Below are positions 32,677 through 49,592 of a stretch of DNA of 64,000 nt, one piece after another. The notes beneath the pieces were generated by a model, which was not told the origin of the DNA, made no database searches, and worked only from the letters and a program-made list of their open reading frames with translations. Each line of letters starts with the position of its first letter. Positions within the stretch are counted from its first letter, which is position 1. This DNA is from Candidatus Nitrospinota bacterium M3_3B_026. Lineage in GTDB: Bacteria > Nitrospinota_A > UBA7883 > JBPRGF01. The stretch covers positions 172,127 through 236,126 of the forward strand of contig JBPRGF010000023.1 of assembly GCA_051418015.1 (NCBI GenBank), read 5' to 3'. Position numbers and translations under genes: made by a program.

Positions 32677-32698
32677 TTTTTCAAGGGGAGACGAGGCG

Positions 32699-33166
32699 AT
32701 GAGACCAAAATCCCTTGCGCCGGTACTGGAGGGGCACCCGTTCCTTGAGGGGATGGAGAAAAAGCACATCGACCTGATCGTGGGATGCGCCAAAAACGTC
32801 CGCTTCAACGCCGGGGACTACATCTTCCGCGAAGGCGAAGCGGCGAACGATTTCTACATCATCCGCCGGGGCCTCGTCTCGGTGGAGCTTTACAGCCCCC
32901 GGAAAGGCCCCATCTCCATCCAGACCCTTCGCGACGGCGACATACTCGGCTGGTCGTGGCTCATACCGCCACACCAGTGGCGGTTCGACGCGCGGGCGGT
33001 GGAGACAACGAGGGCCATAGCGCTGGACGGCGGATGCCTGCGCGGGAAGCTGGAGGACGACCACGGCCTCGGCTACCAGCTGCTGAAAAGATTCTCCCGG
33101 GTCATGGCAAAGACGCTCGAGGGCACGAGGCTCCAGCTGCTGGACCTTTACGGCGAAGGCGCATGA
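32699..33166 (+). CDS. stand-alone cyclic nucleotide-binding domain protein (no DNA-binding domain)
   Basis: 155 aa with a cNMP-binding fold (GDYIFREGEAANDFYIIRRGLVSVEL, GDILGWSWL). GGGGAG RBS. Its stop overlaps the ATG of the next gene (ATGA). Confidence 0.65.
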   Translation: MRPKSLAPVLEGHPFLEGMEKKHIDLIVGCAKNVRFNAGDYIFREGEAANDFYIIRRGLVSVELYSPRKGPISIQTLRDGDILGWSWLIPPHQWRFDARAVETTRAIALDGGCLRGKLEDDHGLGYQLLKRFSRVMAKTLEGTRLQLLDLYGEGA

Positions 33167-34017
33167 CGACGCCCGTTTCCATCAATCCCGGAGCGGACGC
33201 GGCGATCCCCGTTCCCTGGATGGTGACGGCCAGGAGGGAGCAGACGCGCGACGTCTTCACCCTCGAGCTTGCCCCGCCCGCCGGGATGGACGGTCTCCGG
33301 TTCGCGCCGGGCCAGTTCAACATGCTGTACCAGTTCGGCGCGGGCGAGGCGCCGATCTCCATCAGCGGCGACCCAGCGAGGACCGGCGCGCTGGAGCACA
33401 CGATCCGGGCCGTCGGCGGCGTGACAAGGCTTATGGCCAGCCTTAGGGAAGGAGACGCCATCGGCGTCCGGGGCCCATACGGGCGTGGATGGCCGATGCC
33501 TGAGGCGGAGGGGAAAGACGTCGTCATCGCCGCGGGCGGGATCGGGCTGGCCCCGCTGCGCCCGGCGGTTCTTGGCATACTGGCGGAGCGGGAAAAATTT
33601 GGAAGAGTCGTCCTGTTTTACGGCGCGCGATCCGACGAGGACATAGTCTTCGAAGACGACCTGCGGGAATGGCGGTCGAGGTTCGACATGGAGATCGAGG
33701 TGACCGTCGACCGGGGGTCCGGCGGATGGCGCGGACCCGTCGGCGTCGTCACACAGCTTATTCCGCGGGCCGCCTTTGATCCCGCGAAAACGCTGGCCAT
33801 GATATGCGGGCCGGAGGTGATGGCGAAGTTCACCGTGTCGGAGTTTTTAAGGCTCGGCGTTGAGCCGGGGAGGATATACGTCTCCATGGAACGGAGCATG
33901 AAATGCGGAGTCGGCCTTTGCGGGCATTGCCAGATGGGCCCGCTTTTCGTCTGCAAGGACGGGCCGGTTTTCACCTATGACAGCATCCGCCGCCTCATGG
34001 CTCTGCGGGAGATATAG
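33163..34017 (+). CDS. NiFe hydrogenase gamma subunit, AsrB-like FAD/NAD(P)-binding 2Fe-2S oxidoreductase
   Basis: 284 aa. FAD-binding barrel (RDVFTLEL...GQFNMLY), an NAD-binding region (VVIAAGGIGLAPL), and a C-terminal 2Fe-2S Cys cluster (CGVGLCGHCQMGPLFVCKDGPVF). The ORF call at 32785 is a spurious extension. Confidence 0.75.
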   Translation: MTTPVSINPGADAAIPVPWMVTARREQTRDVFTLELAPPAGMDGLRFAPGQFNMLYQFGAGEAPISISGDPARTGALEHTIRAVGGVTRLMASLREGDAIGVRGPYGRGWPMPEAEGKDVVIAAGGIGLAPLRPAVLGILAEREKFGRVVLFYGARSDEDIVFEDDLREWRSRFDMEIEVTVDRGSGGWRGPVGVVTQLIPRAAFDPAKTLAMICGPEVMAKFTVSEFLRLGVEPGRIYVSMERSMKCGVGLCGHCQMGPLFVCKDGPVFTYDSIRRLMALREI

Positions 34018-34782
34018 ATGAAAAAGAAACTGGCCGTCTTCAAGTTCGCCTCATGCGACGGCTGCCAGCTTTCGCTTCTCAACCTGGAGGACGAGCTTCT
34101 GGCCATCGCCGGCGCCATCGACATCGCCTATTTCCCCGAGGCGTCGCGGGAGTACGTCAAGGGGCCTTACGACCTTTCCCTGGTGGAAGGCTCCATAACC
34201 ACCTCCCACGACGCGGAGCGGATCCAGAAGGTGAGGGAAAACTCGAAATTCCTCGTGACCATCGGCGCCTGCGCGACGGCGGGGGGCATCCAGGCGCTCC
34301 GGAATTTTCAGGACGTAAACGAGTTCATATCCGTGGTCTATGCCTCGCCGGAGTATATCAGCGCGCTCGGCGAGTCCACGCCCATCGCCGATCACGTCGC
34401 CGTGGACTTCGAGCTTCGCGGCTGCCCCGTGAACAAAGGGCAGCTGCTGGAGGTCGTAACGGCCTTCATCCACGGGAGAGCGCCAAAAGTCCCGGCCCAC
34501 AGCGTCTGCCTGGACTGCAAGCTGGCGGGGAACGTCTGCGTGATGGTGGCCCGGAGTGAGCCGTGTCTTGGGCCCGTGACCCACACAGGCTGCGGCGCGC
34601 TCTGCCCGGCGTATCATCGCGGCTGCTACGGCTGTTTCGGGCCGATGGAGACGCCGAACACGCGCTCCATGGGCGGGCGGCTGAAGGCGCTGGGGCTTTC
34701 GGGGGAGGACGTCGTCCGCTCTTTCCGGGGCTTCAACGCCTGGGCGGAGGATTTCAGGGAGGCCGGCGGGGAGGATGAGTGA
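34018..34782 (+). CDS. NiFe hydrogenase small (delta) subunit
   Basis: 254 aa. Proximal-cluster Cys pattern [27 protein letters not shown]. Confidence 0.8.
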
Positions 34783-36070
34783 AACCAGGAAGATAAGGGT
34801 GGACTACCTCGCCCGCGTCGAGGGAGAGGGGGCTATGACATTGAAGATAAAGGACGGCGCCGTCTCCGGCGTGGCCCTTGAGATATTCGAGCCGCCACGC
34901 TTTTTCGAGGCTTTTTTGAGGGGGCGGAGATTCCAGGAAGCGCCGGACATCACCGCCCGGATATGCGGCATATGCCCCATCGCCTACCAGATGAGCGCCG
35001 TCCACGCCATGGAGGACGCGCTGGGGGTCGCCGTCGACGGGGCCACGAGGGATCTTCGCAGGCTGATCTACTGCGGCGAGTGGATAGAAAGCCACGCCCT
35101 CCACGTCTACATGCTCCATGCCCCCGATTTCCTCGGGTACGAAAGCGCCATCCACATGGCAAAAGACCACCCGGAAATAGTAAAACGCGGTCTTTTTATA
35201 AAGAAGGCGGGCAACGCCATCGTCTCGCTTCTTGGCGGCAGGGAGGTTCACCCCATAAACGTCCGGGTGGGGGGTTTTTACAGGTTGCCGCGAGCTGGCG
35301 AGCTTTCCGGCCTGGAGGAGACTCTCAAAAGAGCCAGGGACGAGGCCGTGGAAACCGTGAAATGGGCCGCCGCCCTCCCCTTCCCCGAGTTTGAGAGGGA
35401 TTATGTCTTCGTGGCGTTGTCTCATGAAAGAGAGTATCCCTTCAACGAGGGAAGAATCACCTCCACCGGCGGGCTCGACATCCCTGTCAGCGACTACGAA
35501 AAACATTTCGAGGAGGAGCACGCCGCCCATTCCACGGCCCTGCGCTCGAAGATAAAGGGAGGCGGCGCGTACATGACCGGGCCGATGGCGCGGTATAGCA
35601 TCAACTTCGGGAAGCTGCGGCCGATAGCGGTGGAAACGGCGCGGGCGGCGGGCCTTGCGCCGTACATCACGAACCCGTACAAGAGCATAGCCGTCCGCGC
35701 CGTGGAGATTCTCCACGCCATAGACGAGGCGCTGCGGATCATCGGGGACGGAAAGCTTCCCGAAAAGCCGTTCGTGGAGGCGGAGCCCTCCGAGTCCACG
35801 GGATACGGCGCGACGGAGGCGCCGCGGGGGCTTCTCTACCACAGGTACACGCTTGACGAGAGCGGGCTGATAACGAGCGCCAGGATCGTCCCCCCCACGT
35901 CGCAGAACCAGCGGATAATCGAGGAGGACCTTTTCAAGGCCGCCTCCGAAAACCTCCGCCTGCCCGACGATGAGCTTACGTTACGGCTGGAACAGACGAT
36001 AAGGAACTATGACCCGTGCATATCCTGCTCCACGCATTTTCTGAAGCTGAAAATAGAACATGAACGGTAA
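34775..36070 (+). CDS. NiFe hydrogenase large (alpha) subunit
   Basis: N-terminal L1 motif RICGICP. C-terminal L2 motif DPCISCSTH followed by a 10-aa cleavable tail. Confidence 0.9.
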
Positions 36071-36536
36071 GGTCCTCATAGGCGTCGGGTCCGAGGATCG
36101 CGGCGACGACGCCGCAGGGCTCAGGATCGTCCGCGCCCTCAGGGACATGGTTCCCAGGAGCGTCGAGGTGGTGGAGGCGCCGGGCGAGGGAGCGCGTATA
36201 ATGGAGGCTTGGCAGGGTTTTCATTTCACGCGGGTGTTCGACGCCGTCTCCTCCGGCGCGCCGCCGGGGACGATCGTAAAGCTCGACCCGCGTAAGGACC
36301 CCTTTCCCGCGGCCTTTTTTCGCAGTTCCTCCCACACTTTCGGCCTGGCGGAGGCGGTGGAGCTTGCGCGGTCGCTCGGCGCTCTTCCGCCGTCTCTCAT
36401 GATCTACGGGGTGGAGGGGAAGGACTACGGGCTGGGGCGGGGGCTCTCGGCGGAGGTGTCCGCCGCCGTGGATGAGATCGTGGAGATGGTCAAAAAGGAG
36501 ATGCTCTCTTCGCCATCCATGGGAGATGATGGCTAG
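36060..36536 (+). CDS. hydrogenase maturation endopeptidase (HycI/HoxW family)
   Basis: 158 aa ([17 protein letters not shown]). Overlaps the large-subunit stop. Confidence 0.8.
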
Positions 36537-37054
36537 GACTTGGAGAACCGCTCCGACACGGAGTCGAAGCCTATGACCACCTTGTCGCGGCTTTCGAGGG
36601 TGACCGTCCCTTCGAAAGAGTGGCCGAACGTCTCGTCCCCGTCCCTGGTGTCCTTTATGGCCACTTTTATCGCATGCGAGCCGAGGGGCAGGATGAACTT
36701 CTCGTAGACATACGTGGCGCTGTCCTGCCTTATGCCCGATGGGACGATCTGCTTGTCCAGGGCGGTTTCGCCGTCGATCCACACCTTGAGCCGCAGGGGG
36801 ACGCGTTCCCGGCTGCCGCAAACCCTGTCCGCCCGCTGCATGTGCGGGCGTCTCAGCTTGGCCTCCTTTTTGAACTCTTCGAGCTCCTCCTCGTCGCACA
36901 GGCTCCTGCGCTCGGTCACTCTCTTGAACGATATGATGACCCCCCCCACGTCGTCGCTGTAATAGCTGTAGGACGGCGAGTCGGAAAGAAAATACACCAG
37001 CGGCGCGGGGGACAAAAGCAGGATCACGGCCCAGACCGTCAGTCTATCCTTCAT
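36533..37054 (-). CDS. hypothetical secreted protein
   Basis: 173 aa with an N-terminal signal-like helix. Last gene of the minus-strand oxidase operon. Its stop overlaps the protease stop (convergent). Confidence 0.4.
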   Translation of the reverse strand: MKDRLTVWAVILLLSPAPLVYFLSDSPSYSYYSDDVGGVIISFKRVTERRSLCDEEELEEFKKEAKLRRPHMQRADRVCGSRERVPLRLKVWIDGETALDKQIVPSGIRQDSATYVYEKFILPLGSHAIKVAIKDTRDGDETFGHSFEGTVTLESRDKVVIGFDSVSERFSKS

Positions 37055-38730
37055 TTCAGCGCGCCCTCCATGTCGTTGGCGGCGGTCTTTCCGCCGGATG
37101 GTTTTCTGACGATCTCCAGGAACTTCTTTATGTCCGCCACCACTTCCTCGTCCTCAAACCTCGACACCAGCATGACTTTTATCCGCTCCCCCGCGCTCTC
37201 GTCCACTCCGGTGATGTTCGCCGGGTCCGTCGCCTCCTCGATCCGCTCGTTGCCTTCCCTGTAATGGCAGTCCAGCGGCCTGCAGCCCACGACCACGACC
37301 CCCTTCGCGCCGTCCTTGAACGCCGCTCCCACAAGGTCCGGCTCCAGGACGCCGGCGCAGGGGATGACCATCACGGCCGCCGCGGGCTCGCCGGCAAGGC
37401 TTCTCTCGTCGTCCGACAGGACGTTCGAGAGGGTCATGCTCCGCTCGCACATGAAGCAGAGGATGACCGGCTTCTCCCCCTCCGCGGGCGCCATAAGGGA
37501 CTTTATGTCCTCCAGCATCGAATCCCGCGTCATCTCCCCCATGGATATCCCGGACGTGGGGCACGCCGTCACGCAGAACCCGCATCCCTCGCACCGCGCC
37601 GGGAATATTTCCACCTGTGTGTCGTATGGTCTTCCGTCCGTTCTGGGAGTTATGCTCACCGCCTCGAAAGGGCAGACCGGCTGGCAGAGGTTGCATCCTT
37701 TGCATTTTTCAAGGTCTACCAGCGCGAACTGTTTTCGGGCTTTTTTTTTTGCCGCCGCCTTTCGCTTCTCACGCTCCAGCGCCGGCGCGGGGATGAGCCA
37801 TGGCAGGGCCGTGAAAAGCGCGAGGGCCGCGGAGCCGGCGATCCACATCGCGCCGGGGGCGACCCTGAAGGCGTCCATGAAGGGGAACGGGATCAGGTAG
37901 AACCAGTCTATCTCCACTCTTCCTAAAAGCTTCGAAAGGTCCGCGGGTCCCATACTGACGGCCGGTTTCACGAGGGAGAGGCCCAGCAGGCCCGCCAGTA
38001 TGACCAACGCCACCGGCCGCGGCGGGGAGATCAGGGGCCTGGAAAGGCGCATGTAGTGGATCCAGGCCATTATCAACAGGAAACAGGGGATCATGAGATG
38101 CAGGTAGTTGGTCACGAAAAAGAGCACGCTCGTGACCGTCTCGTTGGTCAGGAACGTCCTGGAGACGGGCTCCACGGTGATGGGGAGGGCGTCCAGCAGG
38201 CGGGCGAACTCCACGGCCACCATCTTCCCCTTCTCGTCCCACACCAGCACGTAGCCGGATATCCCCTCGAACCAGACCCAGAACAGGATCACCGAGCCGG
38301 AGACCCACGCCACCCATCTAGCGCGCCTGAACCGGTCGGAGAAAAAGACCTGGGCCACGTGCAGAAGGATGGATATGGCCAGCCCGTCGGCGGCGTAGCG
38401 GTGCATGGAGCGCATTATGCCGCCGTAATATTTCTGCTCCTTGGTGATGTATTGTACGGACTCGTAGGCCCCTTCCACGCTCATATCGTAAAAGAGGAAC
38501 AGGTATGACCCGGTGATGATGAGGATCCAGAACAGGAACAGGGATATGGCCCCGAGGAAGTACATGGGGTTCAGCCTCGGCGGGAAGATCTTGTTCAGCT
38601 GCTCCTGGATGAAGACCAGCGTCGTGTTGCCGGGCCGCAATATCCAGGGGATAAGCTCATTCTGGTACGTCTTGGAGGCCCTTTTCAGGGACCTTTCGAG
38701 TTCTCTCTCCTTGTCCGTGTCTTGTCTCAT
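37051..38730 (-). CDS. fusion protein: di-haem cytochrome b6-like membrane domain + 2x[4Fe-4S] ferredoxin + MvhD-like (FlpD) domain
   Basis: Cytochrome b His pairs 14 residues apart (MHRYAADGLAISILLH and YLHLMIPCFLLIMAWIH) and a b6-like GYVLVWD motif. Two CxxCxxCxxxCP motifs (CKGCNLCQPVCP, CEGCGFCVTACP). MvhD signature GCRPLDCHYREGN. Confidence 0.7.
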   Translation of the reverse strand: MRQDTDKERELERSLKRASKTYQNELIPWILRPGNTTLVFIQEQLNKIFPPRLNPMYFLGAISLFLFWILIITGSYLFLFYDMSVEGAYESVQYITKEQKYYGGIMRSMHRYAADGLAISILLHVAQVFFSDRFRRARWVAWVSGSVILFWVWFEGISGYVLVWDEKGKMVAVEFARLLDALPITVEPVSRTFLTNETVTSVLFFVTNYLHLMIPCFLLIMAWIHYMRLSRPLISPPRPVALVILAGLLGLSLVKPAVSMGPADLSKLLGRVEIDWFYLIPFPFMDAFRVAPGAMWIAGSAALALFTALPWLIPAPALEREKRKAAAKKKARKQFALVDLEKCKGCNLCQPVCPFEAVSITPRTDGRPYDTQVEIFPARCEGCGFCVTACPTSGISMGEMTRDSMLEDIKSLMAPAEGEKPVILCFMCERSMTLSNVLSDDERSLAGEPAAAVMVIPCAGVLEPDLVGAAFKDGAKGVVVVGCRPLDCHYREGNERIEEATDPANITGVDESAGERIKVMLVSRFEDEEVVADIKKFLEIVRKPSGGKTAANDMEGALK

Positions 38731-38779: not shown

Positions 38780-39595
38780 TTAGGAGGCTTGCGCGCCCCT
38801 CGCGCGGCCTGAGTGGCGGGAGAAAAGATGGGCTATCCTGCCCCGCAACAGGTAAACGACAGTGGCCACTATCAGGATGTACTGCAAAATGACTGCGAAG
38901 ACAAACGTGTAATCGACCTTGTAGGTCTTGGTGACGGGATCGTAGTTCGAGCAGTAGATCAACAGCTTTGACAGGGCGCTGGTCATCCTCCCCTGCGCCG
39001 TGCGGCCGGCGAGGACATCCCGGACGGCGTTCTCCACTTCCGCGGGATCGTAGTCCACTCCGTAGAAATGCCTGGCGACGGAGCCGTCGGGCGCGACGAG
39101 GGTGAGGCGGTTCAGGTGATCGAGGCTGTCCGCCTTCTTCTCGTAGGAAAAGCCGAGGTCCGACACCATCATCCCCAGCGTCTCGTCGTCGGTGGTCGTG
39201 AATATCCATCTTTCGAAATTGTCCGCGAAAGCCGCGCCGTACTCCCTGAGCCTGGCGGGGTTGTCGTTATGGTTGTCGATGCTTATCGACAGCGTCATCA
39301 GCTTCCCGGCGACGGCCGGGTCGATGGCCGCCAACATGTTTTTAAGGCTCTCGTTTATGAGCCAGCAAGGGCCGTGGCAGTCCACGTACATGAAGCTTAC
39401 GAGGACGGGCCTGCCTTTCAGGCTGTGGAACGGGAGGTAGTCCCCGTCCTGCGTAATAAGCCTGTAGTTTCGCACCTTCCGCCCCACCGCCAGCTCCGAG
39501 CGCTCCAGGACCGAAGCCCCAGGCGCGGCCGGCGCCGTGGCGGAAAGCGGCGAAACGATCAGAACAACCGCTAATACCAGCGCACGTTTCAGCAT
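38780..39595 (-). CDS. SCO1/SenC family copper chaperone (thioredoxin-like)
   Basis: 271 aa. Signal peptide, CHGPC (CxxxC) motif, and a C-terminal TM segment. Confidence 0.7.
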   Translation of the reverse strand: MLKRALVLAVVLIVSPLSATAPAAPGASVLERSELAVGRKVRNYRLITQDGDYLPFHSLKGRPVLVSFMYVDCHGPCWLINESLKNMLAAIDPAVAGKLMTLSISIDNHNDNPARLREYGAAFADNFERWIFTTTDDETLGMMVSDLGFSYEKKADSLDHLNRLTLVAPDGSVARHFYGVDYDPAEVENAVRDVLAGRTAQGRMTSALSKLLIYCSNYDPVTKTYKVDYTFVFAVILQYILIVATVVYLLRGRIAHLFSRHSGRARGAQAS

Positions 39596-39685
39596 GGGGT
39601 AAAGGCCGCTCCCCTTAAAAACCGCCGCGGCTCCGGGCCGGTGGTGTTACCCCCGCCGGAGCCGCGGCTCCCCTCTCTAAGCGCG

Positions 39686-39814
39686 TCAACCCACCTTCCA
39701 TACTCCTACAAGATACTTCCAGTTGAGGAAGTAGAAGGCCACGAACGTAATGAAAAATATGATGATGATGGCGAACGAGCCTTTCGGCCTGTGTTCGTCT
39801 CTCTCTTCAACCAT
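39686..39814 (-). CDS. small single-TM membrane peptide (42 aa), candidate oxidase accessory subunit
   Basis: Not in the ORF track. ATG is preceded by AGGAGG at -5. MVEERDEHRPKGSFAIIIIFFITFVAFYFLNWKYLVGVWKVG. Lies between SCO1 and subunit I. Confidence 0.45.
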   Translation of the reverse strand: MVEERDEHRPKGSFAIIIIFFITFVAFYFLNWKYLVGVWKVG

Positions 39815-39844: not shown

Positions 39845-41365
39845 TCAAGCCTCGATCTTTTTGCCGACTAGCAGCGTCCCGACGGCCACCAACACATACA
39901 TGGCGCCGCCCAGCACCGCTATGACGCCGCCGATGCCCACGATCGCCATCGAAAGGTCCACGATGGGCCCGAAGTTGACGGCGAAGGGCGAATCCGCCCC
40001 GGTCATGTCCCAGCTTCTCCTGGGCACGCCGAACACCCCGGCGAACATCATGAAGATGCACAGCAGGTACATCCCTATGCCATAGACGTAGGGCTGGGCC
40101 TTGGCTATGCCCTTGAAGGCCACCTCGCGCCTGAATATGAGAGGCAGCACGTAGTAGGTCACGCCCATGAAGGCCATCGTCGTGCCCGCCACCACTGTGG
40201 CGTGGAAATGGCCGGGGACGCGGATGGTGTTGTGGACGACTATGTTCAGCTGCTCCGTGCCGTATATGACGCCGGAGATGCCTCCCAGGAAGCCGAAGCC
40301 CACCATCGAGAACCACAGCGAGGACCATCCCGGATCGCCCCACGGGGCCTTCTTGAGCCACTCGAAAAGACCGGCGGTGTAGCCCTTCTTCCTGAGCGCC
40401 ACCTCCGTCGCCGCCGGCACGGAGAAGGCGTGGATCATCGAGGCCAGCACAGCAAGGTGCATGAAGTACCCCGTGTTCCACGACTTGTGCGCCGCCGAGA
40501 GGCCCGGGTCGACCAGCAGGTGGTGCTCCGAGGCTATCAGGATGAACAAGATGTAAAGGCCGAAAGCGATGCGGCTGACCTTCTCGTTGATCGGCGTGGA
40601 GCCGACCGTCAATGTCCCCAGAAGGTACCAGACAGCCACCATGGCGCAGACGTTTATCTGCTGCGACGAGTGGCCGAAGCCCCAGAACAGCAGCCTGTAG
40701 ACCTCCGCGTCCATCATGGGGATGAGCCCCAGGGCCCACAGCCACGTGGGGATAAAAGTGGCCGCTCCATGCGCCAGGGTCAGTATGGCGATGATCGCCG
40801 CCGCCATGGCCCCGAAGGTCACAAGCGGGACGGAGCCTTCGTAGGTCTTGTCCCTCTTGGCCACCGCCAGCGTGGCGAAAAAGACCACGCAACCCACGAT
40901 GGCGCCCACGGCGAAGAGTATCACGCCGAGGTAGTACCAATGGTCGGCCTTCAAGGGGATGTACGAGGTGAACATCACGTCCGCCTTGCCGAGCAGTATC
41001 TCCACCGCCGCTATTGCGGCTCCGCCCAGCATCAGCAGATACGCCAGCCACCCGGCCCATGGCGCGGCCAGCCTGGTGTTCAGCAACACCGCGGACGCGA
41101 AGTAGAGCACAGCTATCTCGAAGAAGATGATCCACGCCACCAGCATGGCGATCCCGTGCAGGGTCAGCAGCCGGTAGAACCACTCGTCATTGAGTATGTG
41201 CACGGCCTGCCACCTGGTGAGGACCATGAACAGCCCGATTATCCCCCCCACGAGGAGGAACACGATCGAAGTCACCGCGTTGACCTGTATCAGGGTCTGC
41301 GCGGGAAGGTGTATCTTGAAACCGGTTGTCGGACAGGTTCTGAACCGTCCTTCTTGCTCCGCCAT
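39845..41365 (-). CDS. heme-copper oxidoreductase superfamily subunit I (12+ TM), possibly a nitric oxide reductase
   Basis: All six canonical His are present: helix II (LTLHGIAM), helix VI (GFGHSSQQ), helix VII (SEHH) and helix X (GHFHATV). There is no Tyr at H+4 in helix VI. Confidence 0.85.
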   Translation of the reverse strand: MAEQEGRFRTCPTTGFKIHLPAQTLIQVNAVTSIVFLLVGGIIGLFMVLTRWQAVHILNDEWFYRLLTLHGIAMLVAWIIFFEIAVLYFASAVLLNTRLAAPWAGWLAYLLMLGGAAIAAVEILLGKADVMFTSYIPLKADHWYYLGVILFAVGAIVGCVVFFATLAVAKRDKTYEGSVPLVTFGAMAAAIIAILTLAHGAATFIPTWLWALGLIPMMDAEVYRLLFWGFGHSSQQINVCAMVAVWYLLGTLTVGSTPINEKVSRIAFGLYILFILIASEHHLLVDPGLSAAHKSWNTGYFMHLAVLASMIHAFSVPAATEVALRKKGYTAGLFEWLKKAPWGDPGWSSLWFSMVGFGFLGGISGVIYGTEQLNIVVHNTIRVPGHFHATVVAGTTMAFMGVTYYVLPLIFRREVAFKGIAKAQPYVYGIGMYLLCIFMMFAGVFGVPRRSWDMTGADSPFAVNFGPIVDLSMAIVGIGGVIAVLGGAMYVLVAVGTLLVGKKIEA

Positions 41366-41378
41366 AAGCCCCCCCTAC

Positions 41379-41906
41379 CTATTCAACGTATATCTTGCCG
41401 AACATCAGGTGATGCCCGATGCCGCAGAACTCGTTGCAGATTATGGTGTACTCCCCGGCTTTCGTCGGCGTGATGGTCAGCACCGAGTCCCACCCGGGGA
41501 CGGCCTGGAAGTTCATGTTCAAAGGATAGATCGAAAAACCGTGGTTCACGTCCACGGAGGACAGATGCAGCCTGTAGGTCTGGCCCGCCTTGAGCTTCAG
41601 GATGGGGTCCCACGACCACTGGGCGGCTCTCATGAAGGCGTCGCTGTTGGGAGGAGGCTCCACGACCGGGATTCCTTCCTCCTCGCCCACCTTGTACTTC
41701 TCTATGAACTTATCGGTCAGGTTGTAGAAATCGTCGGTGGTGAGCTTGTAGTACTCCTGCGGCGGGTTCTGCTCCCCGATTATATGCCAGGCCGGCATAA
41801 TAAGTGTTATCAATATGCACCATATCAGCGCGATGGTGATCCATATCTTCTCCTCCGCATGGAGAGGACTGCGCCACCAGTGCCGCGCGGGCGAATGAAT
41901 GCTCAT
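41379..41906 (-). CDS. heme-copper oxidase subunit II with CuA site (cupredoxin), no cytochrome c domain
   Basis: N-terminal TM helices. CuA motif VNHGF...ICNEFCGIGHHLM (H-x35-CxExCGxxHxxM). Confidence 0.8.
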   Translation of the reverse strand: MSIHSPARHWWRSPLHAEEKIWITIALIWCILITLIMPAWHIIGEQNPPQEYYKLTTDDFYNLTDKFIEKYKVGEEEGIPVVEPPPNSDAFMRAAQWSWDPILKLKAGQTYRLHLSSVDVNHGFSIYPLNMNFQAVPGWDSVLTITPTKAGEYTIICNEFCGIGHHLMFGKIYVE

Positions 41907-41928: not shown

Positions 41929-42132
41929 TCACCCTTTGACCAAAGGAGACGTGGCGACGCTGCCCAACTCCACAAGTCCCCAGACGGTGTACAACAGCAG
42001 GAAAATCGCCGCCCCGAGGAAAAACAGCAGATACACGTCATCGAAAAACACCTGCCAGAAAGATACCGGCTCCTCTTCCCGCGCCTCTTCTTGTTCCATA
42101 TGACTTCCCCCCTTTAATCTAAGGTTCGCCAA
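41929..42132 (-). CDS. small membrane protein (first gene of oxidase operon)
   Basis: 67 aa with one TM helix. Possibly starts at the internal MEQEE. Confidence 0.35.
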   Translation of the reverse strand: MANLRLKGGSHMEQEEAREEEPVSFWQVFFDDVYLLFFLGAAIFLLLYTVWGLVELGSVATSPLVKG

Positions 42133-42263
42133 AGATGAGGATCACGCCTGTAGCGCCGGCTCCGTCGCCGGGTACCGCGCCGCGCGCCGCGATCACGCTC
42201 AAACCGGCGCTCATGCGCCACGCTCTTACCGCGTTTTTATATCGGCAACCATCGGTAAAAGCT

Positions 42264-42277
42264 ATGATAAAAGTCAT
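42264..42277. promoter_or_regulatory. FNR/Dnr(Crp-Fnr family)-type palindrome
   Basis: ATGATaaaagTCAT, versus the consensus TTGAT-N4-ATCAA. Lies in the divergent intergenic region, about 130 nt upstream of the oxidase operon. Confidence 0.35.
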
Positions 42278-42529
42278 AAACAACAGACGCATTTCATTAC
42301 CATCCGCGACGCTCTGGCTATATGCCTGCGGCGCCCCGTAAGCGCCGGGACGCTCTGGCGAACACCCTGGAAAACCGTCGGCGCCAAGGAAAGCAAAACG
42401 CTTCGCCCGAAGAAAATAATTTCGCGCGGAGGGCGCAATTTTTTTCCAGGCCACCGCGGAATCTTCAGCAACCGCCGAGAATCCAAAAAGTTACATCATG
42501 AAAAATTCCGCAAGATACTTTTCAAATGT

Positions 42530-42543
42530 ATGACTTTAATCAT
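42530..42543. promoter_or_regulatory. FNR/Dnr-type palindrome upstream of nirS
   Basis: ATGACtttaATCAT, centred 77 nt upstream of the nirS ATG. This is consistent with a -41.5 class II site. Confidence 0.45.
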
Positions 42544-42613
42544 ATCGTCCGGCCGGAGTCCCGTTTATAAACGGTATTAAGCAGCGAATAAGACTTTTTT
42601 TTGGGGGGGACAC

Positions 42614-44218
42614 ATGAAAAGATATTTCTTTCTGTTCGCGCTGAGTCTTGCGTTAATCACCACGTTTTACACGCCACAAGCCCTGGCGGAGCCCGAAGCG
42701 CCACCGTTGAACCAGGATGAATGGCACATCGCCAAGAGCATCTACTTCAACAGGTGCGCCGGCTGCCACGGCACCCTGAGGAAAGGCGCCACGGGGCCCA
42801 ACCTCCTTCCGGAGAAGACCCTCGAATTCGGCACGGAGACCATCAGGAGCTTCATTATGGAGGGGACCGAGGGGGGCATGCCGGCCTTCGGCAGGGGCGG
42901 AATCCTGACGCCGGAGGAGGTCGACATCATGGCCAGGTTCGTCCAGCATGACCCCGTGGCCCCGCCGGAGATGTCGCTGGCGGACATGATGGAAAGCTGG
43001 AACCTTGTCGTGCCGCCGAACAAGAGGCCGAAAAAGCCGGCCCACAACAGGAACTGGCAGAACTTCTTCGGCGTGGTCCTGCGCGACGCTGGCCAGGTGG
43101 CCATCATCGACGGCGACACCAAGGAGAAGGTATCCACCGTCAACACAGGCTTCGCGGTGCACATCCTGCGCGCCTCGGCGTCGGGCCGGTATATCTTCTC
43201 AATCGGCCGCGACGGCAAGGCGACCATGATCGACACCTGGATGAAAAAGCCGTCCATCGTGGCCGAGGTCAAGACCTGCTCCGAGGCCCGCTCCATCGAC
43301 ACCAGCAAATACGAAGGCTACGAGGACAAGTACGCCGTGGTGGGCTGCTACTGGCCGCCGCACTTCGTCGTCCTGAACGGCGCCACGCTGGAGCCGATGA
43401 AAATCGTCAGCACCAGAAGCTACACCTACGACTCGTATGAGTACCATCCCGAGCCCCGCGTGGCGGCGATCGTCTCCTCGCACTACAGCCCGGAGTGGGT
43501 CCTGAACGTCAAGGAGACGGGCTACGTCTGGCTGGTCGATTACTCCGATATCGAGAACATGAAGATCACCCAGATCGAGTCTGAGCGCTTCCTTCACGAC
43601 GGGGGCTGGGACGCCAAGCACCGCTACTTCATGGCGGCGGCGAACATGCGCGACACCATGGTTGTCATAGACACCAAGACCAGGAAGAAGGTGGCGCAGT
43701 TCAAGGTCGGCACCAAGCCGCACCCGGGCCGCGGCGGAAACTGGGTCGACCCGAAATACGGCCCCGTCTCGGGCACGGTGCACCTCGGCGAGGGACTGCT
43801 CTCGGTGTGGGGGTCCGACCCTGAGGGTCACCCGGAACACGCCTGGAAGGTCGTGAGAAGCATCGAGCTTCCCGGCGGCGCCGGCAGCCTGTTCATGAAG
43901 ACCCACCCCAAGAGCAAACACATGTGGATGGACTTCACCCTGAACCCGGACCCGAAGAACCATCGCAGCGTATGCGTGATGGACATCAACAAGCCTAACA
44001 CCAAGGACCTGAACTGTTTCCAGGTGACCGACCACGGACGCGTCGTGCACATGGAGTACAACAAGAAAGGGGACGAGGTGTGGCTGAGCGTCTGGGACAA
44101 GGAGGGCGAGCTGGTCATCTACGACGACAGGACCCTGAAGGTCAAGAAGAGGATCAAGGGTCTTCGCACTCCCACGGGCAAGTTCAACGTGTACAACACG
44201 CAGCACGACATCTACTGA
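42614..44218 (+). CDS. nirS: cytochrome cd1 nitrite reductase
   Basis: 534 aa. Signal peptide, haem c site IYFNRCAGCHGTLRKGATG, a d1 beta-propeller, and a C-terminus FNVYNTQHDIY near-identical to Pseudomonas NirS. Confidence 0.92.
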   Translation: MKRYFFLFALSLALITTFYTPQALAEPEAPPLNQDEWHIAKSIYFNRCAGCHGTLRKGATGPNLLPEKTLEFGTETIRSFIMEGTEGGMPAFGRGGILTPEEVDIMARFVQHDPVAPPEMSLADMMESWNLVVPPNKRPKKPAHNRNWQNFFGVVLRDAGQVAIIDGDTKEKVSTVNTGFAVHILRASASGRYIFSIGRDGKATMIDTWMKKPSIVAEVKTCSEARSIDTSKYEGYEDKYAVVGCYWPPHFVVLNGATLEPMKIVSTRSYTYDSYEYHPEPRVAAIVSSHYSPEWVLNVKETGYVWLVDYSDIENMKITQIESERFLHDGGWDAKHRYFMAAANMRDTMVVIDTKTRKKVAQFKVGTKPHPGRGGNWVDPKYGPVSGTVHLGEGLLSVWGSDPEGHPEHAWKVVRSIELPGGAGSLFMKTHPKSKHMWMDFTLNPDPKNHRSVCVMDINKPNTKDLNCFQVTDHGRVVHMEYNKKGDEVWLSVWDKEGELVIYDDRTLKVKKRIKGLRTPTGKFNVYNTQHDIY

Positions 44219-44301: not shown

Positions 44302-46017
44302 ATGACCTCGCCATCCATGACGCGGATCGCGGCTCTCATCCTTGCGCCGGTGTTTATCTCCGGCCCCGGATCGGCCTTCGCCGAAACTTCCGCGAAGAAC
44401 CTCTATGGGGAGCATTGCGCGAGCTGCCATCACCCGAAAAGGCTGGGGCTCACGGCCCCTCCCTTGATACCGGGTCTTTTTTCAAGAAGCGCCAAGGGCC
44501 GCCTGCCCCAAATAATCCGCGACGGGCTTCCGGCCACGCGGATGCCGGCTTTCGGCGGCGAGCTTTCTGATGAACAGATAAAACTTCTGGCGGAACTCAT
44601 ACAAGAACCGGCGAAGGAGTTGGACTGGACTTTTGAGGACATACGGTCTAGCAAGATTGACATTGACGAGCCTGGAAAAGTTTTAAGAGCCGACATCGAG
44701 AATATAACGCTGGTCATGGAGCGCGGGACGCAGAGCCTCGTCGTTCTGGACGGCGCGGATTTCAGCGAGCTCGGCAGGTTCCACGTGGGCGCCGTCCACG
44801 GCGGGCCGAAGTTTTCGTATTCCCTGGATCGTGTGTACGCCCTTGCCAGGGACGGGATACTGACAAGCTATAATCTGAGAGCCCTTTCCGCCGAGACCAG
44901 GCTCAAGGCGGGGATAAACTCCCGCTCCGTCGCCGTATCAAGCGGCGACAAAACGGTGGCCGTGGCCAATTACCTTCCGTCCAACGTCGTCCTTTTCGAC
45001 AAAGACCTGGAGCCCGTCGGCGAGATACCACTGCCCGGAAAGGCGGGGGGGTTCTACTCGCTGCCGTCCCTGAAAAGCTTCGCCCTGTCGTTCAGGGAGA
45101 TTCCGGAACTCTGGATAATCGGCGAGAGCCCGCCTTTCGAGATCGAAAAACGAAAGCTGCCCGAGGCTTTCCAGGATTTTTCGGTCAGTCCCGTCAAGCC
45201 TTACATAATCGGGACGAAACGGGGCGGCGATCATATGTACATCTACGACTACATGGAGGACAGGATACTCAAAAAGATCCCCACCAGCGGCCTGCCGCAC
45301 CTGGCCTCGGCCGCGTTCTACATACACAAGGGCGAGCTTTTCGCCGGGGTCAACCACATAAAAAAGCCAGCGGCCACGATCATATCCCTCGACCGGCTCG
45401 ACAAGGTGGCCGAGATACCCCTTCCCGGCGCGGGCTTTTTCGTCCGGACGCATCATGCCACGCCGTACCTGTGGATAGATACCGAGACGGAGCGGATCGC
45501 CCTCGTGAACAAGGACGACTTCTCCGATATCCGCTACCTGACGCCCCACGAGGGGCGCAAGGCGATGCACGTGGAATTCACCAAGGAGGGCGCCCGCGCC
45601 CTGGTCACCATCCCGGGCAGGGGCGGCGAGGTGGTCATATACGACGCGAAGACCCTGGAAAAGATCAACGCCATCCCCTTCGAACGGCCCGTCGGCAAGT
45701 ACAACGCCACGAACAAGACGTACCCGGGCAGATCGCTCGCGGCGCGGAAGGCGGATGGGGCCAGCGCGGGCAAACAGGTCTTCGACAAATACTGCATGGG
45801 GTGCCACCACCAGGTCTACGAGGCGTTCGGGCCATCCTTCACCCGGATAGCCAGGGAGAGGGGCGCGGCAAGGATAAAGTTTCACATCCTGTCGCCCGAG
45901 GCCAGCGCAAAGACCCTGGGGTACAAGAGAAACTCCATGCCCAGGATAAAACTTTCGCCGGAGCAGCTGGAGGCGATAGTCAGATACATAAAAAGCTTCG
46001 GCCAGACGGGGGGATAA
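44302..46017 (+). CDS. nirN: cd1-family beta-propeller protein with N- and C-terminal c-type cytochrome domains (NirN-like fused to a NirC-like cytochrome c)
   Basis: 571 aa. Signal peptide. CASCHH at the N-terminus, a d1-type propeller, and a second CMGCHH motif in a C-terminal domain of about 90 aa. Confidence 0.65.
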   Translation: MTSPSMTRIAALILAPVFISGPGSAFAETSAKNLYGEHCASCHHPKRLGLTAPPLIPGLFSRSAKGRLPQIIRDGLPATRMPAFGGELSDEQIKLLAELIQEPAKELDWTFEDIRSSKIDIDEPGKVLRADIENITLVMERGTQSLVVLDGADFSELGRFHVGAVHGGPKFSYSLDRVYALARDGILTSYNLRALSAETRLKAGINSRSVAVSSGDKTVAVANYLPSNVVLFDKDLEPVGEIPLPGKAGGFYSLPSLKSFALSFREIPELWIIGESPPFEIEKRKLPEAFQDFSVSPVKPYIIGTKRGGDHMYIYDYMEDRILKKIPTSGLPHLASAAFYIHKGELFAGVNHIKKPAATIISLDRLDKVAEIPLPGAGFFVRTHHATPYLWIDTETERIALVNKDDFSDIRYLTPHEGRKAMHVEFTKEGARALVTIPGRGGEVVIYDAKTLEKINAIPFERPVGKYNATNKTYPGRSLAARKADGASAGKQVFDKYCMGCHHQVYEAFGPSFTRIARERGAARIKFHILSPEASAKTLGYKRNSMPRIKLSPEQLEAIVRYIKSFGQTGG

Positions 46018-46018
46018 G

Positions 46019-47188
46019 ATGTTCAGACTAAGCCATTATTACAACATAGCTGAAGGGCGCGCGGGCCGCGGCGGAAAGTCCCATGGCGCCAGATGCGGCG
46101 GGAAGCCGATCGTGATATGGAACCTCACGAGGACATGCAACCTCTCGTGCGTCCATTGCTACGCCTCGTCGAAGGCGCGCGGCTACAGCAGGGAGCTTTC
46201 CACGGAGCAGGCCGTCTCGGTCATGGACGGCCTTTACGCCGCCGGGGTGAGAACGGTCATCCTCTCCGGCGGCGAGCCGATGATCCGCGGGGATATCCTT
46301 AACCTTGCCGCAAGCGCTAAAGAAAAAGGCTTCATGACCTCCATCTCCACCAACGGCACACTTATAGGAGAGAAGGAGGCGGACAGGATAGCCGCCGCGG
46401 GGCTGGACTACGTCGGCGTGAGCCTGGACGGCATCGGCGAGACCCACGACCGCGTCCGGGGCGTCGAAGGCTCTTTCGAGCAGGCCGTGGCGGGGCTTTT
46501 CAGGCTGGCGGAGCGGGGGGTAAAATGCGGCGTGCGTTTCACGCTGACGAGGATGAACATGAACGACCTGCCGGCGATCTTCGAGTTCGCCGAGAAGAAC
46601 GGGATAGGGAAAATATATTTATCACACCTCGTCTACTCCGGCAGGGGTGGCGTCAATCGGGGGGAGGACGTCACCCCGGCTGAGACGAGGGAAGCGATGG
46701 ATTACGTTTTCAGCAAGGCGCGGGAGTACACGCGGCGCGGGCGCGGGCCGCAGATCGTCACCGGGAACAACGACGCCGACGCCGCGTACCTGCTCCTGCG
46801 TCTCATGGAGGGGAGCCCGGAGGGGGCCGAGCGGCTCCTGCCGGTGATGGAGAGGTTCGGCGGGGCCAACGCCGGGGTGGGGGTCGCGAACATAGACCCC
46901 ACCGGTGAGGTCCACCCCGATCCTCTCATGTCCTCCGTGAACCTGGGGAACGTCACCGAAAAATCTTTCGGTGAGATATGGCATGACTCCGAAAACCCCG
47001 TCCTGAAAAGGCTCCGGGCGAGGCCCCGCGTCTTCAACGGCCGGTGCGGACGGTGCGCCTGGCTGAAGGTGTGCGGCGGCTCCTGCCGCGTCCGGGCTCT
47101 GCGGATGACGGGGGACATGTGGGGTCACGACCCCGCCTGCTACCTTACCGACGAGGAAACCCAGGTTGAGCTTGCGCAGGCTGTATAG
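46019..47188 (+). CDS. nirJ: haem d1 biosynthesis radical SAM protein
   Basis: 389 aa. CNLSCVHCY radical SAM cluster plus a C-terminal SPASM-like Cys cluster (CGRCAWLKVCGGSC). Lies in the nir context. Confidence 0.8.
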   Translation: MFRLSHYYNIAEGRAGRGGKSHGARCGGKPIVIWNLTRTCNLSCVHCYASSKARGYSRELSTEQAVSVMDGLYAAGVRTVILSGGEPMIRGDILNLAASAKEKGFMTSISTNGTLIGEKEADRIAAAGLDYVGVSLDGIGETHDRVRGVEGSFEQAVAGLFRLAERGVKCGVRFTLTRMNMNDLPAIFEFAEKNGIGKIYLSHLVYSGRGGVNRGEDVTPAETREAMDYVFSKAREYTRRGRGPQIVTGNNDADAAYLLLRLMEGSPEGAERLLPVMERFGGANAGVGVANIDPTGEVHPDPLMSSVNLGNVTEKSFGEIWHDSENPVLKRLRARPRVFNGRCGRCAWLKVCGGSCRVRALRMTGDMWGHDPACYLTDEETQVELAQAV

Positions 47189-48338
47189 CGCTGTTATCCC
47201 GGCCGTTCTCGCGCTCGCGGCAGCAGCGGCGACAGCGGGCGAGTGGGGCACGGGGGCGCTCATGGTGGTCATCGAGCGCGAAAGCGGCTCCGTCCTGGTC
47301 ATAGACTCCGCCCAGGACCACAAAGTCCTGGGCAGGATAGAGGGTCTCGGCGTACTGCATCACGCATCGGTCTCCTTCTCCCGCGGCGGGCGCTACGGCT
47401 ACGTCGTCAGCCGCGACGGCTTTTTGAGCAAGATCGACCTTCTGAGGCTCGAAGTCACCGCCAGGGTGAAGGTGGGAGAGAGCGCCATCGGGCTGGCTGT
47501 CACGCAGGACGGGAAACATATCGCCATCAGCAATTACAAGCCGGGGAACATCGTCATCGTCTCCGATGAGACTTTTGAGATCGTAAAGACCATAGACGCC
47601 GACGAGTCGAAGACCGTCGGCCTCGTGGACGCCCCGGAGAACAGGCTGGTGGTCTCTTTAATGGACGCGAACGAGATATGGGTAATAGACGCGAACGATC
47701 CGGATTTCCCCGTCATCAAAAAGTTCAAGGACGTCGGCGAGAAGCCATACGACGGCCTGCTGACTCCCGACGGGCGGTATTACATCGCCGGGCTTTTCCA
47801 TTCCCCGTGGGCGGCGATGGTGGACCTCTGGAGCATGGACGGGGTTGAAAAAATCCCGCTGCCCGTCCCGCCCGAAAAAAAGGACAAACCGCCGGTCCTG
47901 AAGATCCCCCACCTGGAGGGGTGGATCATGGCCGGGCAGGGCCTTTTCGCGCCGGTGATAGGCGGCTCCGGGCTGGCGCTGATCGACATGGAGACATGGA
48001 AGGTAAAGAAGGTGATAGACCTGCTGGCATACCCCGTCTTCGCCATGGCCCAGCCGGACATGAGGAGGATATGGACCAACTACGTCCTGGGCGAACACCA
48101 CGACACCGTGCAGGTCGTGGACGTGAAAACCCTCGAGGTGGTCAAAACCCTCAAACCCGGCGACAAAATTTTCCACATGCAGTTCACGCCCAAGGGCGGC
48201 GCCGTCTACCTCTCCTCCAACGGCGACGACAAGGTCCTGATCTACGACACGAAGACTTTTGGGCTTGTCAGGGAGATATCAGCCAGAAAACCATCCGGGA
48301 TATTCTCAAGCGCCCGCTCCGCCACCTTCGGGCTGTGA
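47166..48338 (+). CDS. nirF: haem d1 biosynthesis protein NirF (d1-type propeller without haem c)
   Basis: 390 aa. Signal peptide. cd1-propeller-like repeats. No CxxCH. Confidence 0.7.
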   Translation: MSLRRLYSAVIPAVLALAAAAATAGEWGTGALMVVIERESGSVLVIDSAQDHKVLGRIEGLGVLHHASVSFSRGGRYGYVVSRDGFLSKIDLLRLEVTARVKVGESAIGLAVTQDGKHIAISNYKPGNIVIVSDETFEIVKTIDADESKTVGLVDAPENRLVVSLMDANEIWVIDANDPDFPVIKKFKDVGEKPYDGLLTPDGRYYIAGLFHSPWAAMVDLWSMDGVEKIPLPVPPEKKDKPPVLKIPHLEGWIMAGQGLFAPVIGGSGLALIDMETWKVKKVIDLLAYPVFAMAQPDMRRIWTNYVLGEHHDTVQVVDVKTLEVVKTLKPGDKIFHMQFTPKGGAVYLSSNGDDKVLIYDTKTFGLVREISARKPSGIFSSARSATFGL

Positions 48339-48488: not shown

Positions 48489-49592
48489 ATGAGCACGATC
48501 CTTATCGTGGACGACAACGAGGACAGCATTGTCCTTTACGAGTCCATCATCTCGTCGCGCGGCTACAGGGTCATCACCGCCGGCGACGGCGAGGAAGCCC
48601 TGGAGAAGCTTAAAGCCGCCGAAGGGGGCGTGGACCTCGTCCTCTCCGACATCATGATGCCGAAAATAGACGGGCTGGGCCTTGCCAGGAGGATAAAGAG
48701 CGACCCCGACGCGCGCCACATCCCGGTGATCCTGCTCACCGCCGGGAAACGTGAGCGCGAGGACATGGCGGGCGGACTGGACGTCGGCGCGGACGACTAT
48801 CTCGTAAAGCCCGTGGACACCGTGGAGCTGATGGCGAGGCTGCGCTCACACCTGAGGGTGAAAAAGCTCCAGGACGAGCTGACGCTGGCGAACCGCCGCC
48901 TGGCGGAGATGAACGACAACCTGGAGCAGTTGGTCGAGGAGCGGACGGTCGAGATCATGCTGACCAGGAACGCGGCCATATTCGGCCTCGCCAAGATCGC
49001 CGAGCGCCGCGACCCGGAGACCGGCGGGCATCTTGAGAGGATACGCGAATACACCAGGGCGCTGGCCATCCAGATGCGGAAGGCGCCGCGTTTCAGGGAC
49101 GTGATCGACGACGACTTCATCGTCAATATCTACCAGTCCAGCCCCCTGCACGACGTGGGCAAGGTGGGCATCCCGGACAGCATATTGCTCAAGCCCGGCA
49201 AGCTGACGCCCGAGGAGTTCGAGATCATGAAAACCCATTCAACGATCGGCGGGGACTCCCTCGCGGCGGCGGAGCGCTCCTTCGCGGGTGACAGCTTTCT
49301 TTCCATGGGAAGAGACATCGCCTACTACCACCATGAACGGTGGAACGGGAAGGGATACCCGAAAGGTTTGGAGGGGGATGAAATCCCTCTCGCCGCCCGG
49401 ATAATGGCCCTGGCCGACGTCTACGACGCCCTGGTCAGCAAACGGGTCTACAAGGAGGCCATGTCCCACGAAGAGGCCAGGAAAATCATCCTGGGCGAAG
49501 AGGGGGAGCATTTCGACCCGGACATCGTGGCGGCTTTCCGGGAGATAGACCAGTTGTTCCTGGAGACAAGAAGAAAACACTCGGACGAGTGA
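48489..49592 (+). CDS. response regulator with HD-GYP phosphodiesterase domain (RpfG-like)
   Basis: REC domain (VDDNED...DLVLSDIMMP...DYLVKP). HD motif HDVGKVGIP. GYP motif WNGKGYPKGL. Confidence 0.85.
   Translation: MSTILIVDDNEDSIVLYESIISSRGYRVITAGDGEEALEKLKAAEGGVDLVLSDIMMPKIDGLGLARRIKSDPDARHIPVILLTAGKREREDMAGGLDVGADDYLVKPVDTVELMARLRSHLRVKKLQDELTLANRRLAEMNDNLEQLVEERTVEIMLTRNAAIFGLAKIAERRDPETGGHLERIREYTRALAIQMRKAPRFRDVIDDDFIVNIYQSSPLHDVGKVGIPDSILLKPGKLTPEEFEIMKTHSTIGGDSLAAAERSFAGDSFLSMGRDIAYYHHERWNGKGYPKGLEGDEIPLAARIMALADVYDALVSKRVYKEAMSHEEARKIILGEEGEHFDPDIVAAFREIDQLFLETRRKHSDE

Follow-up and report, generated by a model that had tools for sequence, protein, structure and literature searches.

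Co-regulation of nitrite reductase and nitric oxide (NO) reductase genes by an FNR-like activator is textbook knowledge for proteobacterial denitrifiers. In the systems of DNR and ANR (Pseudomonas) and of NNR and NnrR (alpha-proteobacteria), a 14-bp TGA-N6-TCA inverted repeat is located upstream of the genes of both reductases, at nirS, nirK and nor promoters. Through such FNR-like boxes, DNR and NnrR act as activators of the nir and nor genes, which results in co-induction of NO production and removal (PMC1274295). The present analysis concerns a 64,000-nt stretch of DNA (referred to below as the window) of Candidatus Nitrospinota bacterium M3_3B_026 (contig JBPRGF010000023.1, positions 172,127 to 236,126 of the forward strand), in which the nirS gene is oriented divergently to an operon encoding an unusual heme-copper oxidase, most likely an NO reductase of the eNOR type. 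The spacer between these two transcription units contains two palindromic sequences, designated box A (nirS side) and box B (oxidase side). Judging from their sequence, position and conservation, the spacer probably carries two back-to-back activator-dependent promoters, through which a single FNR/Dnr-like regulator would co-induce nirS and the eNOR operon.

The boxes of the window share with those of the DNR/ANR and NNR/NnrR systems the 14-bp TGA-N6-TCA inverted repeat upstream of nitrite and NO reductase genes, and the co-induction of NO production and removal, known for those systems, is proposed here. However, (i) the outer base of the half-site is T in the known boxes (TTGAT/TTGAC) and A in the window (ATGAC), (ii) the NO reductase is predicted to be an eNOR-type derivative of the B-family oxidases with CuA, and not cNOR or qNOR, and (iii) the hosts are uncultured, Nitrospinota/Nitrospirae-labelled bacteria, in which the regulator gene is unlinked to the locus.

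The HcpR1 motif of delta-proteobacteria and cyanobacteria, wyTTGACnnnnGTCAArw (Rodionov et al. 2005), has the same GAC-N4-GTC inner half-site and the same y/r flank extension, but differs at position 3 (T in place of A) and in the regulon, which comprises hcp and frdX instead of nirS, eNOR and sco/cytochrome b genes. HcpR1 has also been predicted to control the norB gene in Synechocystis (PMC1274295). The class II promoters of E. coli FNR (site at -41.5) resemble the promoters of the window, whose starts are predicted ones, in that the site lies over the -35 region, 22 nt separate it from the -10 element and a -35 hexamer is absent; the E. coli consensus is TTGAT-N4-ATCAA, in contrast to the window, and FNR senses O2 via an Fe-S cluster. 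As regards the enzyme, the eNOR of Rhodothermus marinus (PMC11214002) likewise combines a B-family-related subunit I, with Gln at the position of the cross-linked Tyr, and a CuA-containing subunit II; the operon of the window differs from it by the addition of two tiny membrane open reading frames (ORFs), SCO1 and a cytochrome b/Fe-S/FlpD fusion.

Two palindromic boxes in the nirS/eNOR spacer

The original prediction, based on the nucleotide sequence of the window, had placed two FNR/Dnr-type palindromes in the nirS/oxidase spacer. Both were found (Table 1), and both have the TGA-N6-TCA core and the layout of a 5-N4-5 inverted repeat: ATGAC-TTTA-ATCAT in box A and ATGAT-AAAA-GTCAT in box B (+ strand). 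When each box is read towards the gene that it precedes, the two sequences (ATGACTTTAATCAT and ATGACTTTTATCAT) differ by a single spacer base. The distance of about 77 nt between the nirS-side site and the ATG codon, given in the original prediction, could be refined to 77.5 nt.

The spacer had also been described as an AT-richer region of 480 bp. Its composition agrees with this description (GC content of 0.52, compared to 0.62 for the window), but its extent does not. Since a conserved ORF of 56 aa starts with an ATG codon at position 42099, the true intergenic region spans positions 42100-42613, not 42133-42613, and is 514 bp long. The AT-rich parts of the spacer are the segments around the boxes (GC content of 0.35 and 0.43), while the leader and the central part are rich in GC. 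This GC-rich central part, located between the boxes, contains a direct repeat (CCGCGACGCTCTGGC, positions 42304-42318; CCGGGACGCTCTGGC, positions 42345-42359) with the two copies 41 bp apart. An ORF of 111 aa that overlaps box B (positions 42119-42454, - strand) was rejected as spurious; a homologue is present in no related locus. An Rfam scan of the window yielded a bacterial RNase P RNA as the sole match, and nothing in the spacer matched a riboswitch or another known RNA.

The strict pattern ATGAYNNNNRTCAT (ATGAY-N4-RTCAT) has two matches in the window, which are boxes A and B, compared to 0.06 expected from shuffled sequences, and none of 100 shuffled windows attained two matches. With a looser pattern (TGAYNNNNRTCA), six matches were obtained against 1.7 expected. 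A weight matrix scan, proposed as a check in the original prediction, was performed with a 22-bp position weight matrix trained exclusively on sites from other loci (the window sites being excluded). This analysis singled out box A (28.6 bits) and box B (25.7 bits), while the next-best position of the window scored 12.3; in 50 shuffles the best score had a mean of 10.5 and a maximum of 20.6. In a total of 826 kb (window plus fetched loci), the strict pattern was observed 31 times (2.8 expected), a number that includes near-duplicate contigs and some matches away from nirS, eNOR and sco promoters; approximately two thirds of the matches are located upstream of nirS, the eNOR operon or sco.

AT-rich intergenic DNA often contains short palindromes, and the box is missing in some relatives. 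Both observations would suit an origin of the palindromes by chance, or as selfish repeats, without a regulatory role. The excess over the expected number of matches, in the window as well as in the 826 kb, the matrix scores of the two boxes and the invariance of the core positions across loci whose flanks do not align effectively exclude this explanation.

The consensus of the box is yATGAC-N4-GTCATa, and the TGA-N6-TCA core is invariant across 13 orthologous sites. The half-site ATGAC agrees with the canonical FNR/Dnr half-site at four of five positions. The full canonical consensus, TTGAT-N4-ATCAA (or TTGAC-N4-GTCAA), does not occur at these sites, as each of the 13 sites of the clade has A at the outer position; the canonical T was observed only in distant nirS loci. 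A Fur-type box was ruled out, since the halves of the box are 4 bp apart, compared to 1 bp in the sequence ATGAT-A-ATCAT that forms part of the Fur consensus.

Predicted promoters

A consensus scan of the spacer revealed no -35/-10 sigma-70 promoter and no -35 hexamer. On each side, the box is followed by the -10-like hexamer TATAAA (Table 1). The same organization was observed in the orthologous loci: a TA-rich -10-like hexamer is located 22-23 nt past the box in 11 of 13 sites (22 nt in locus L007). If transcription starts 7 nt past each of the two TATAAA hexamers, the centres of both boxes would lie at -41.5. Both predicted promoters would thus have the geometry of class II activation, in line with the -41.5 placement that the original prediction had assigned; this rests on the box, the 22-nt interval and TATAAA, on the missing -35 and on the spacing retained in 11 of the 13 sites, with predicted starts. 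According to the FNR and CRP literature, a class II site at -41.5 overlaps the -35 region. The absence of a -35 element from the spacer can be explained in the same way, because activator-dependent class II promoters are generally expected to lack one.

The box half ATGACT was considered as a -35 hexamer and ruled out, as it is 30 nt from the -10-like element. In an alignment of the eNOR leaders, no element was conserved apart from the box, the -10-like hexamer and the ribosome-binding site. A structured RNA within the 130-nt eNOR leader was also ruled out (z = -1.03; no conservation).

In the proposed mechanism, the rightward promoter would drive nirS together with the heme d1 genes, and the leftward promoter the eNOR-type operon. 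Each box would lie approximately 41.5 bp upstream of the predicted start, over the place of the missing -35, where a dimeric regulator of the Crp/Fnr family would bind and recruit RNA polymerase by the class II mechanism that FNR, Dnr, NNR and NnrR use at nir and nor promoters. Nitrite reduction, which generates NO, and the reduction of NO would consequently be induced together. In this model the regulator family, its action by activation (not repression), the start sites and the signal are all putative.

Conservation of the boxes in related loci

Related loci (L numbers) were collected by NirS-alignment scans of species-representative genomes and metagenome sequences, which provided 86 loci. 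The sequence ATGAC-N4-RTCAT was found to be invariant upstream of nirS in seven of the eight loci whose NirS proteins are 66-82% identical to that of the window (L007, L008, L001, L010, L003/L014 and L009; L003, L014 and L009 are near-identical around the box). In anchored alignments of the nirS-upstream regions, conservation was restricted to the box and to the -10-like element that follows it after 22-23 nt, the flanks being unalignable. In most of approximately 30 loci with a more distant NirS (43-49% identity), a canonical TTGAY-N4-RTCAA box is present 70-300 nt upstream of nirS, and two nirS loci with an adjacent Crp-like gene contain boxes of the GTGAC..GTCAC type. Since the distant nirS promoters hold canonical boxes at the equivalent place, the box of the window seems to be a lineage-specific version of the FNR/Dnr box.

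Loci with homologues of subunit I of the oxidase were traced separately (L087/L088, 84% identity; L095, 82%; L094, 78%; L090, 77%), L088 being a second contig that carries the L087 sequence. In total, the box was found upstream of nirS in seven loci, of the eNOR operon in eight (nine with L088) and of sco in five. Two boxes per locus are present where eNOR and nirS are divergently arranged (the window, L007, L008 and L001), and one box each in the four box-bearing nirS loci without an adjacent eNOR (L010, L003/L014 and L009). In L087/L088 and L007, a 14-mer identical to box B (ATGACTTTTATCAT) is located ahead of the eNOR operon, and related boxes precede it in L008, L001, L090, L094 and L095; in L090 the box is located 107.5 nt upstream of the 56-aa ORF. 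In L087/L088, L094 and L095 the operon is situated away from nirS (in L087/L088 its upstream neighbour is a flagellar hook gene), and the box is still found upstream of the 56-aa ORF.

In five relatives, the gap that separates the 42-aa ORF from sco contains an extra box (L001, position 2987; L089, 11741; L091, 11752; L093, 11787; L094, 11729). A terminator- or attenuator-like hairpin occupies this gap in the window; it was missed by the terminator scanner, because its loop of approximately 19 nt exceeds the 3-8 nt limit of the program. Equivalent hairpins are present in L001, L089, L091 and L008. The extra box follows the hairpin in L001, L089 and L091, while the gap of the window contains the hairpin without a box. 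The presence of an additional box ahead of sco, in the hairpin/T-run gap of five relatives, suggests that the sco and cytochrome b genes form a separately controlled unit in these bacteria. Since boxes precede all three units across the loci, the putative regulon would comprise nirS, eNOR and the sco/cytochrome b module.

A conserved, apparently secreted protein family (approximately 150-185 aa), without a Pfam match, is encoded near the nir/eNOR loci of relatives and is absent from the window. The L090 gene of this family has a box upstream.

The nirS and eNOR-type transcription units

The nirS gene of the window encodes a protein with a cytochrome c domain and a d1 beta-propeller, and heme d1 biosynthesis genes are adjacent to it (Table 1); d1-propeller and radical-SAM genes lie downstream. 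Subunit I of the divergent operon has ba3/B-family oxidases as the closest solved relatives, and its best named matches derive from Nitrospinae/Nitrospinota metagenome-assembled genomes. All histidine ligands are retained (the H of LTLHG, GH, HH and HFH align with the ba3 ligands), and the sequence GHSSQQ aligns with GHPIVY of the Thermus ba3 oxidase, which places Gln at the position of the cross-linked Tyr. Subunit II contains the CuA motif CxExCx3Hx2M (CNEFCGIGHHLM) and an upstream His. Replacement of the cross-linked Tyr by Gln is a stated diagnostic feature of eNOR (PMC8756737), and the eNOR of Rhodothermus marinus has been biochemically shown to reduce NO (Murali et al. 2024, PMC11214002). 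For these two reasons, the unusual oxidase of the window is most likely an eNOR-type NO reductase. The suggestion, made in the original prediction, that shared control would tie this oxidase to denitrification and NO gained support from the diagnostic Gln residue and from the presence of the same box ahead of the operon in loci where the operon does not adjoin nirS (L087, L094 and L095).

The 56-aa and 42-aa membrane ORFs recur in essentially every related eNOR operon fetched and may encode extra small subunits; no Pfam or NCBIfam match was found for the 56-aa ORF. In most related eNOR operons, SCO1 is followed by the cytochrome b/[4Fe-4S]/FlpD fusion, of which L091 and L092 have a split or shortened version. 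This fusion may serve as an electron-input module for the eNOR-type enzyme.

A cytoplasmic NiFe hydrogenase-like cluster (positions 31531-36536, + strand), composed of genes for Fe-S, NAD-binding, small and large subunits and a HycI-type maturation protease, lies just upstream of the eNOR operon.

Candidate regulator

Genes encoding Crp/Fnr-type transcription factors were sought in the window and in fetched loci by (i) Pfam scans of candidate ORFs and, against six-frame translations, by (ii) phmmer searches with E. coli CRP and FNR and (iii) a hidden Markov model of 14 nirS-linked regulators. The strong matches in the window were a cyclic nucleotide monophosphate (cNMP)-binding HDOD protein and the cNMP-like N-terminus of a hydrogenase-linked oxidoreductase (Table 1). 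Three weak matches (E values of 1.6 to 10) were set aside as chance.

The known motifs of the Crp/Fnr family vary at the outer base of the half-site together with the recognition helix of the regulator: T is typical of FNR, DNR and HcpR1, and G of CRP (Rodionov et al., PMC1274295). The regulators encoded next to nirS in other lineages agree with this helix-box rule, since the helix SRETVSR is associated with GTGAC..GTCAC boxes and the helix PETFSR with TTGAC..GTCAA. A full-text literature search for the exact ATGAC motif retrieved the TTGAC-N4-GTCAA family only.

A class II activator, namely a dimer of the Crp/Fnr family most likely encoded elsewhere in the genome, is indicated by the TGA-N6-TCA core and y/r flanks of the box, by its 5-N4-5 symmetry and -41.5 geometry, and by the occurrence of canonical boxes in its place in other lineages. 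Several observations weigh against co-induction by such a regulator. No Crp/Fnr-type transcription factor gene was found in the 64-kb window or within flanks of up to 10 kb on each side of the box-bearing loci, and the outer A of ATGAC matches none of the Crp/Fnr consensus sequences listed in PMC1274295, where this base is T or G. Moreover, the box is absent upstream of nirS in L002, which belongs to the group with 66-82% NirS identity, and upstream of the eNOR structural genes in L089, L091, L092 and L093. The match to a -10 element at the expected offset is also poor in two of the sites, i.e. nirS of L008 and eNOR of L001.

Known NsrR sites are longer than the box and are odd-centred 11-1-11 repeats. 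This is of importance for the possibility that the box serves as an operator for a regulator of a different family, e.g. an NO-sensitive repressor of the Rrf2/NsrR type or another dimeric helix-turn-helix protein, which would sit over the -35 region and repress both promoters until NO or nitrite is present. The lack of a Crp/Fnr gene linked to any of the box-bearing loci and an outer base that agrees with no published Crp/Fnr consensus would be compatible with such a repressor. NsrR-type repressors also govern NO-detoxifying genes (PMC1274295), and a site that covers -48 to -35 could block the polymerase just as well. However, the core and the even symmetry of the box are typical of Crp/Fnr sites, and in distant nirS loci the corresponding position is occupied by canonical FNR/Dnr boxes. 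In addition, there is no recognizable -35 element to occlude, and the fixed 22-nt spacing between the box and the -10-like element suits a class II activator. Together with the shorter, even-centred form of the box, this renders repression by a protein of another family unlikely.

By analogy with DNR, NNR and NnrR, the signal for the putative Crp/Fnr-type activator is assumed to be NO and/or low oxygen. A protein of the same family might instead answer a cyclic nucleotide (cyclic AMP, cyclic GMP or cyclic di-GMP, as CRP, Clp and Bcam1349 do), and not NO or O2 directly, and be fed by nearby signalling genes. A gene for an HD-GYP response regulator is located directly after nirF in the window, similar genes are found beside L094, L090, L011 and L013, and the window also encodes a CHASE2 adenylate/guanylate cyclase and the cNMP-HDOD protein. 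This support comes from gene context alone, while the inner half-site GAC..GTC is closer to DNR/HcpR-type boxes than to the CRP-type TGTGA, and the direct regulators of nirS and nor in the denitrifiers studied are NO sensors (PMC1274295). Control by a cyclic nucleotide is hence rated as quite unlikely.

A broader reading, which can be put forward only tentatively, is that the boxes define a hitherto undescribed specificity class of Crp/Fnr regulators (ATGAC), confined to uncultured lineages labelled Nitrospinota or Nitrospirae, with a regulon of nirS, the eNOR-type NO reductase and the sco/cytochrome b-FeS-FlpD module. Given the recurrent HD-GYP response regulators nearby, a regulator of the ATGAC class might respond to a signal other than NO or O2.

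Features of the window and of related loci

The positions of the boxes, the predicted promoter elements and the genes discussed above are summarized in Table 1. The RNase P RNA detected by the Rfam scan is of class A (positions 8001-8404, - strand; 296 bits) and is usable for phylogenetic placement.

Table 1. Predicted regulatory elements and genes of the window, and selected genes of related loci (positions are those of the window unless a locus is named).
Feature	Position	Strand	Remarks
Box A	42530-42543	+	ATGACTTTAATCAT; centre 42536.5, 77.5 nt upstream of nirS ATG (42614); predicted Crp/Fnr-type activator site of the nirS promoter
Box B	42264-42277	-	ATGATAAAAGTCAT on + strand, ATGACTTTTATCAT as reverse complement; centre 42270.5, 171.5 nt upstream of the ATG of the 56-aa ORF; predicted activator site of the eNOR operon
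-10-like hexamer TATAAA, nirS side	42566-42571	+	22 nt past box A; implied start near 42578, leader of ~36 nt
-10-like hexamer TATAAA, eNOR side	42236-42241	-	22 nt past box B; implied start near 42229, leader of ~130 nt
nirS, cytochrome cd1 nitrite reductase	42614-44218	+	Pfam Cytochrom_D1 (6.6e-131) and Cytochrome_CBB3 (N-terminal cytochrome c domain)
nirN-like gene	44302-46017	+	downstream of nirS
nirJ	46019-47188	+	radical SAM/SPASM
nirF	47166-48338	+	downstream of nirS, after nirJ
Response regulator with HD-GYP domain	48489-49592	+	directly after nirF; sub-threshold NCBIfam match 'nitric_RR_NosR' (176 bits, cutoff 400)
Conserved 56-aa membrane ORF	41929-42099	-	first gene of the eNOR operon; tblastn matches at the same position in L007, L089, L091, L001, L087, L090, L008, L092, L013
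Heme-copper oxidase subunit II (cupredoxin)	41379-41906	-	Pfam COX2; intact CuA motif CNEFCGIGHHLM
Heme-copper oxidase subunit I, putative eNOR type	39845-41365	-	Pfam COX1 (4.6e-63)
Conserved 42-aa membrane ORF	39686-39814	-	between subunit I and sco; homologues in the same gap in L001, L089, L091, L087, L008, L090
Terminator-/attenuator-like hairpin	39617-39668	-	perfect 13-bp stem, then TTTTT; between the eNOR structural genes and sco/cytochrome b
SCO1/SenC copper chaperone	38780-39595	-	Pfam SCO1-SenC; syntenic in every eNOR locus fetched
Fusion of N-terminal cytochrome b (b6/petB-like), two [4Fe-4S] ferredoxin motifs and FlpD/MvhD domain	37051-38730	-	Pfam
Conserved 173-aa protein of unknown function	36533-37054	-	after the fusion gene; 50% identical to L087 p174
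NAD-binding oxidoreductase subunit with cNMP-like N-terminus	32785-34017	+	beside NiFe hydrogenase genes
CHASE2 adenylate/guanylate cyclase	51356-53596	-	
cNMP-binding HDOD protein	11015-12379	-	
nirS-adjacent Crp/Fnr regulators of other lineages	L017 2-1036; L018 141-881		also in L074, L060, L050
Members of the secreted protein family	L090 8569-9108; L094 8539-9096; L089 7842-8390; L093 7843-8319; L091 1735-2283; L087 14772-15224; L001 11837-12541 (-)		

Significance of the shared boxes

The comparison with known regulators supports the view that the system is a lineage-specific variant of classical FNR/Dnr-type nir/nor control. The novel elements are a half-site that reads ATGAC, a target of the eNOR type together with its accessory module, and hosts that are uncultured and carry Nitrospinota/Nitrospirae labels. 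A literature search retrieved no paper that combines eNOR with Dnr, NnrR and promoter, i.e. such co-regulation is undescribed for eNOR in the literature searched; to our knowledge, it has not been described for Nitrospinota-like lineages either.

The result is unsurprising in principle, and helps with annotation and with finding the regulator. With the motif, the denitrification regulon of related metagenome-assembled genomes can be delimited and the cognate regulator singled out, and the replacement of T by A at the outer base of the half-site would be an added case of co-evolution between the recognition helix of Crp/Fnr regulators and their boxes. The conserved box constitutes independent, sequence-level evidence that the eNOR-type enzyme and the sco/cytochrome b-FeS-FlpD module, neither of which appears to be an oxygen reductase, work with NirS. 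If the boxes do define an ATGAC specificity class, this would be the first regulatory evidence placing eNOR and its accessory module in the denitrification programme.

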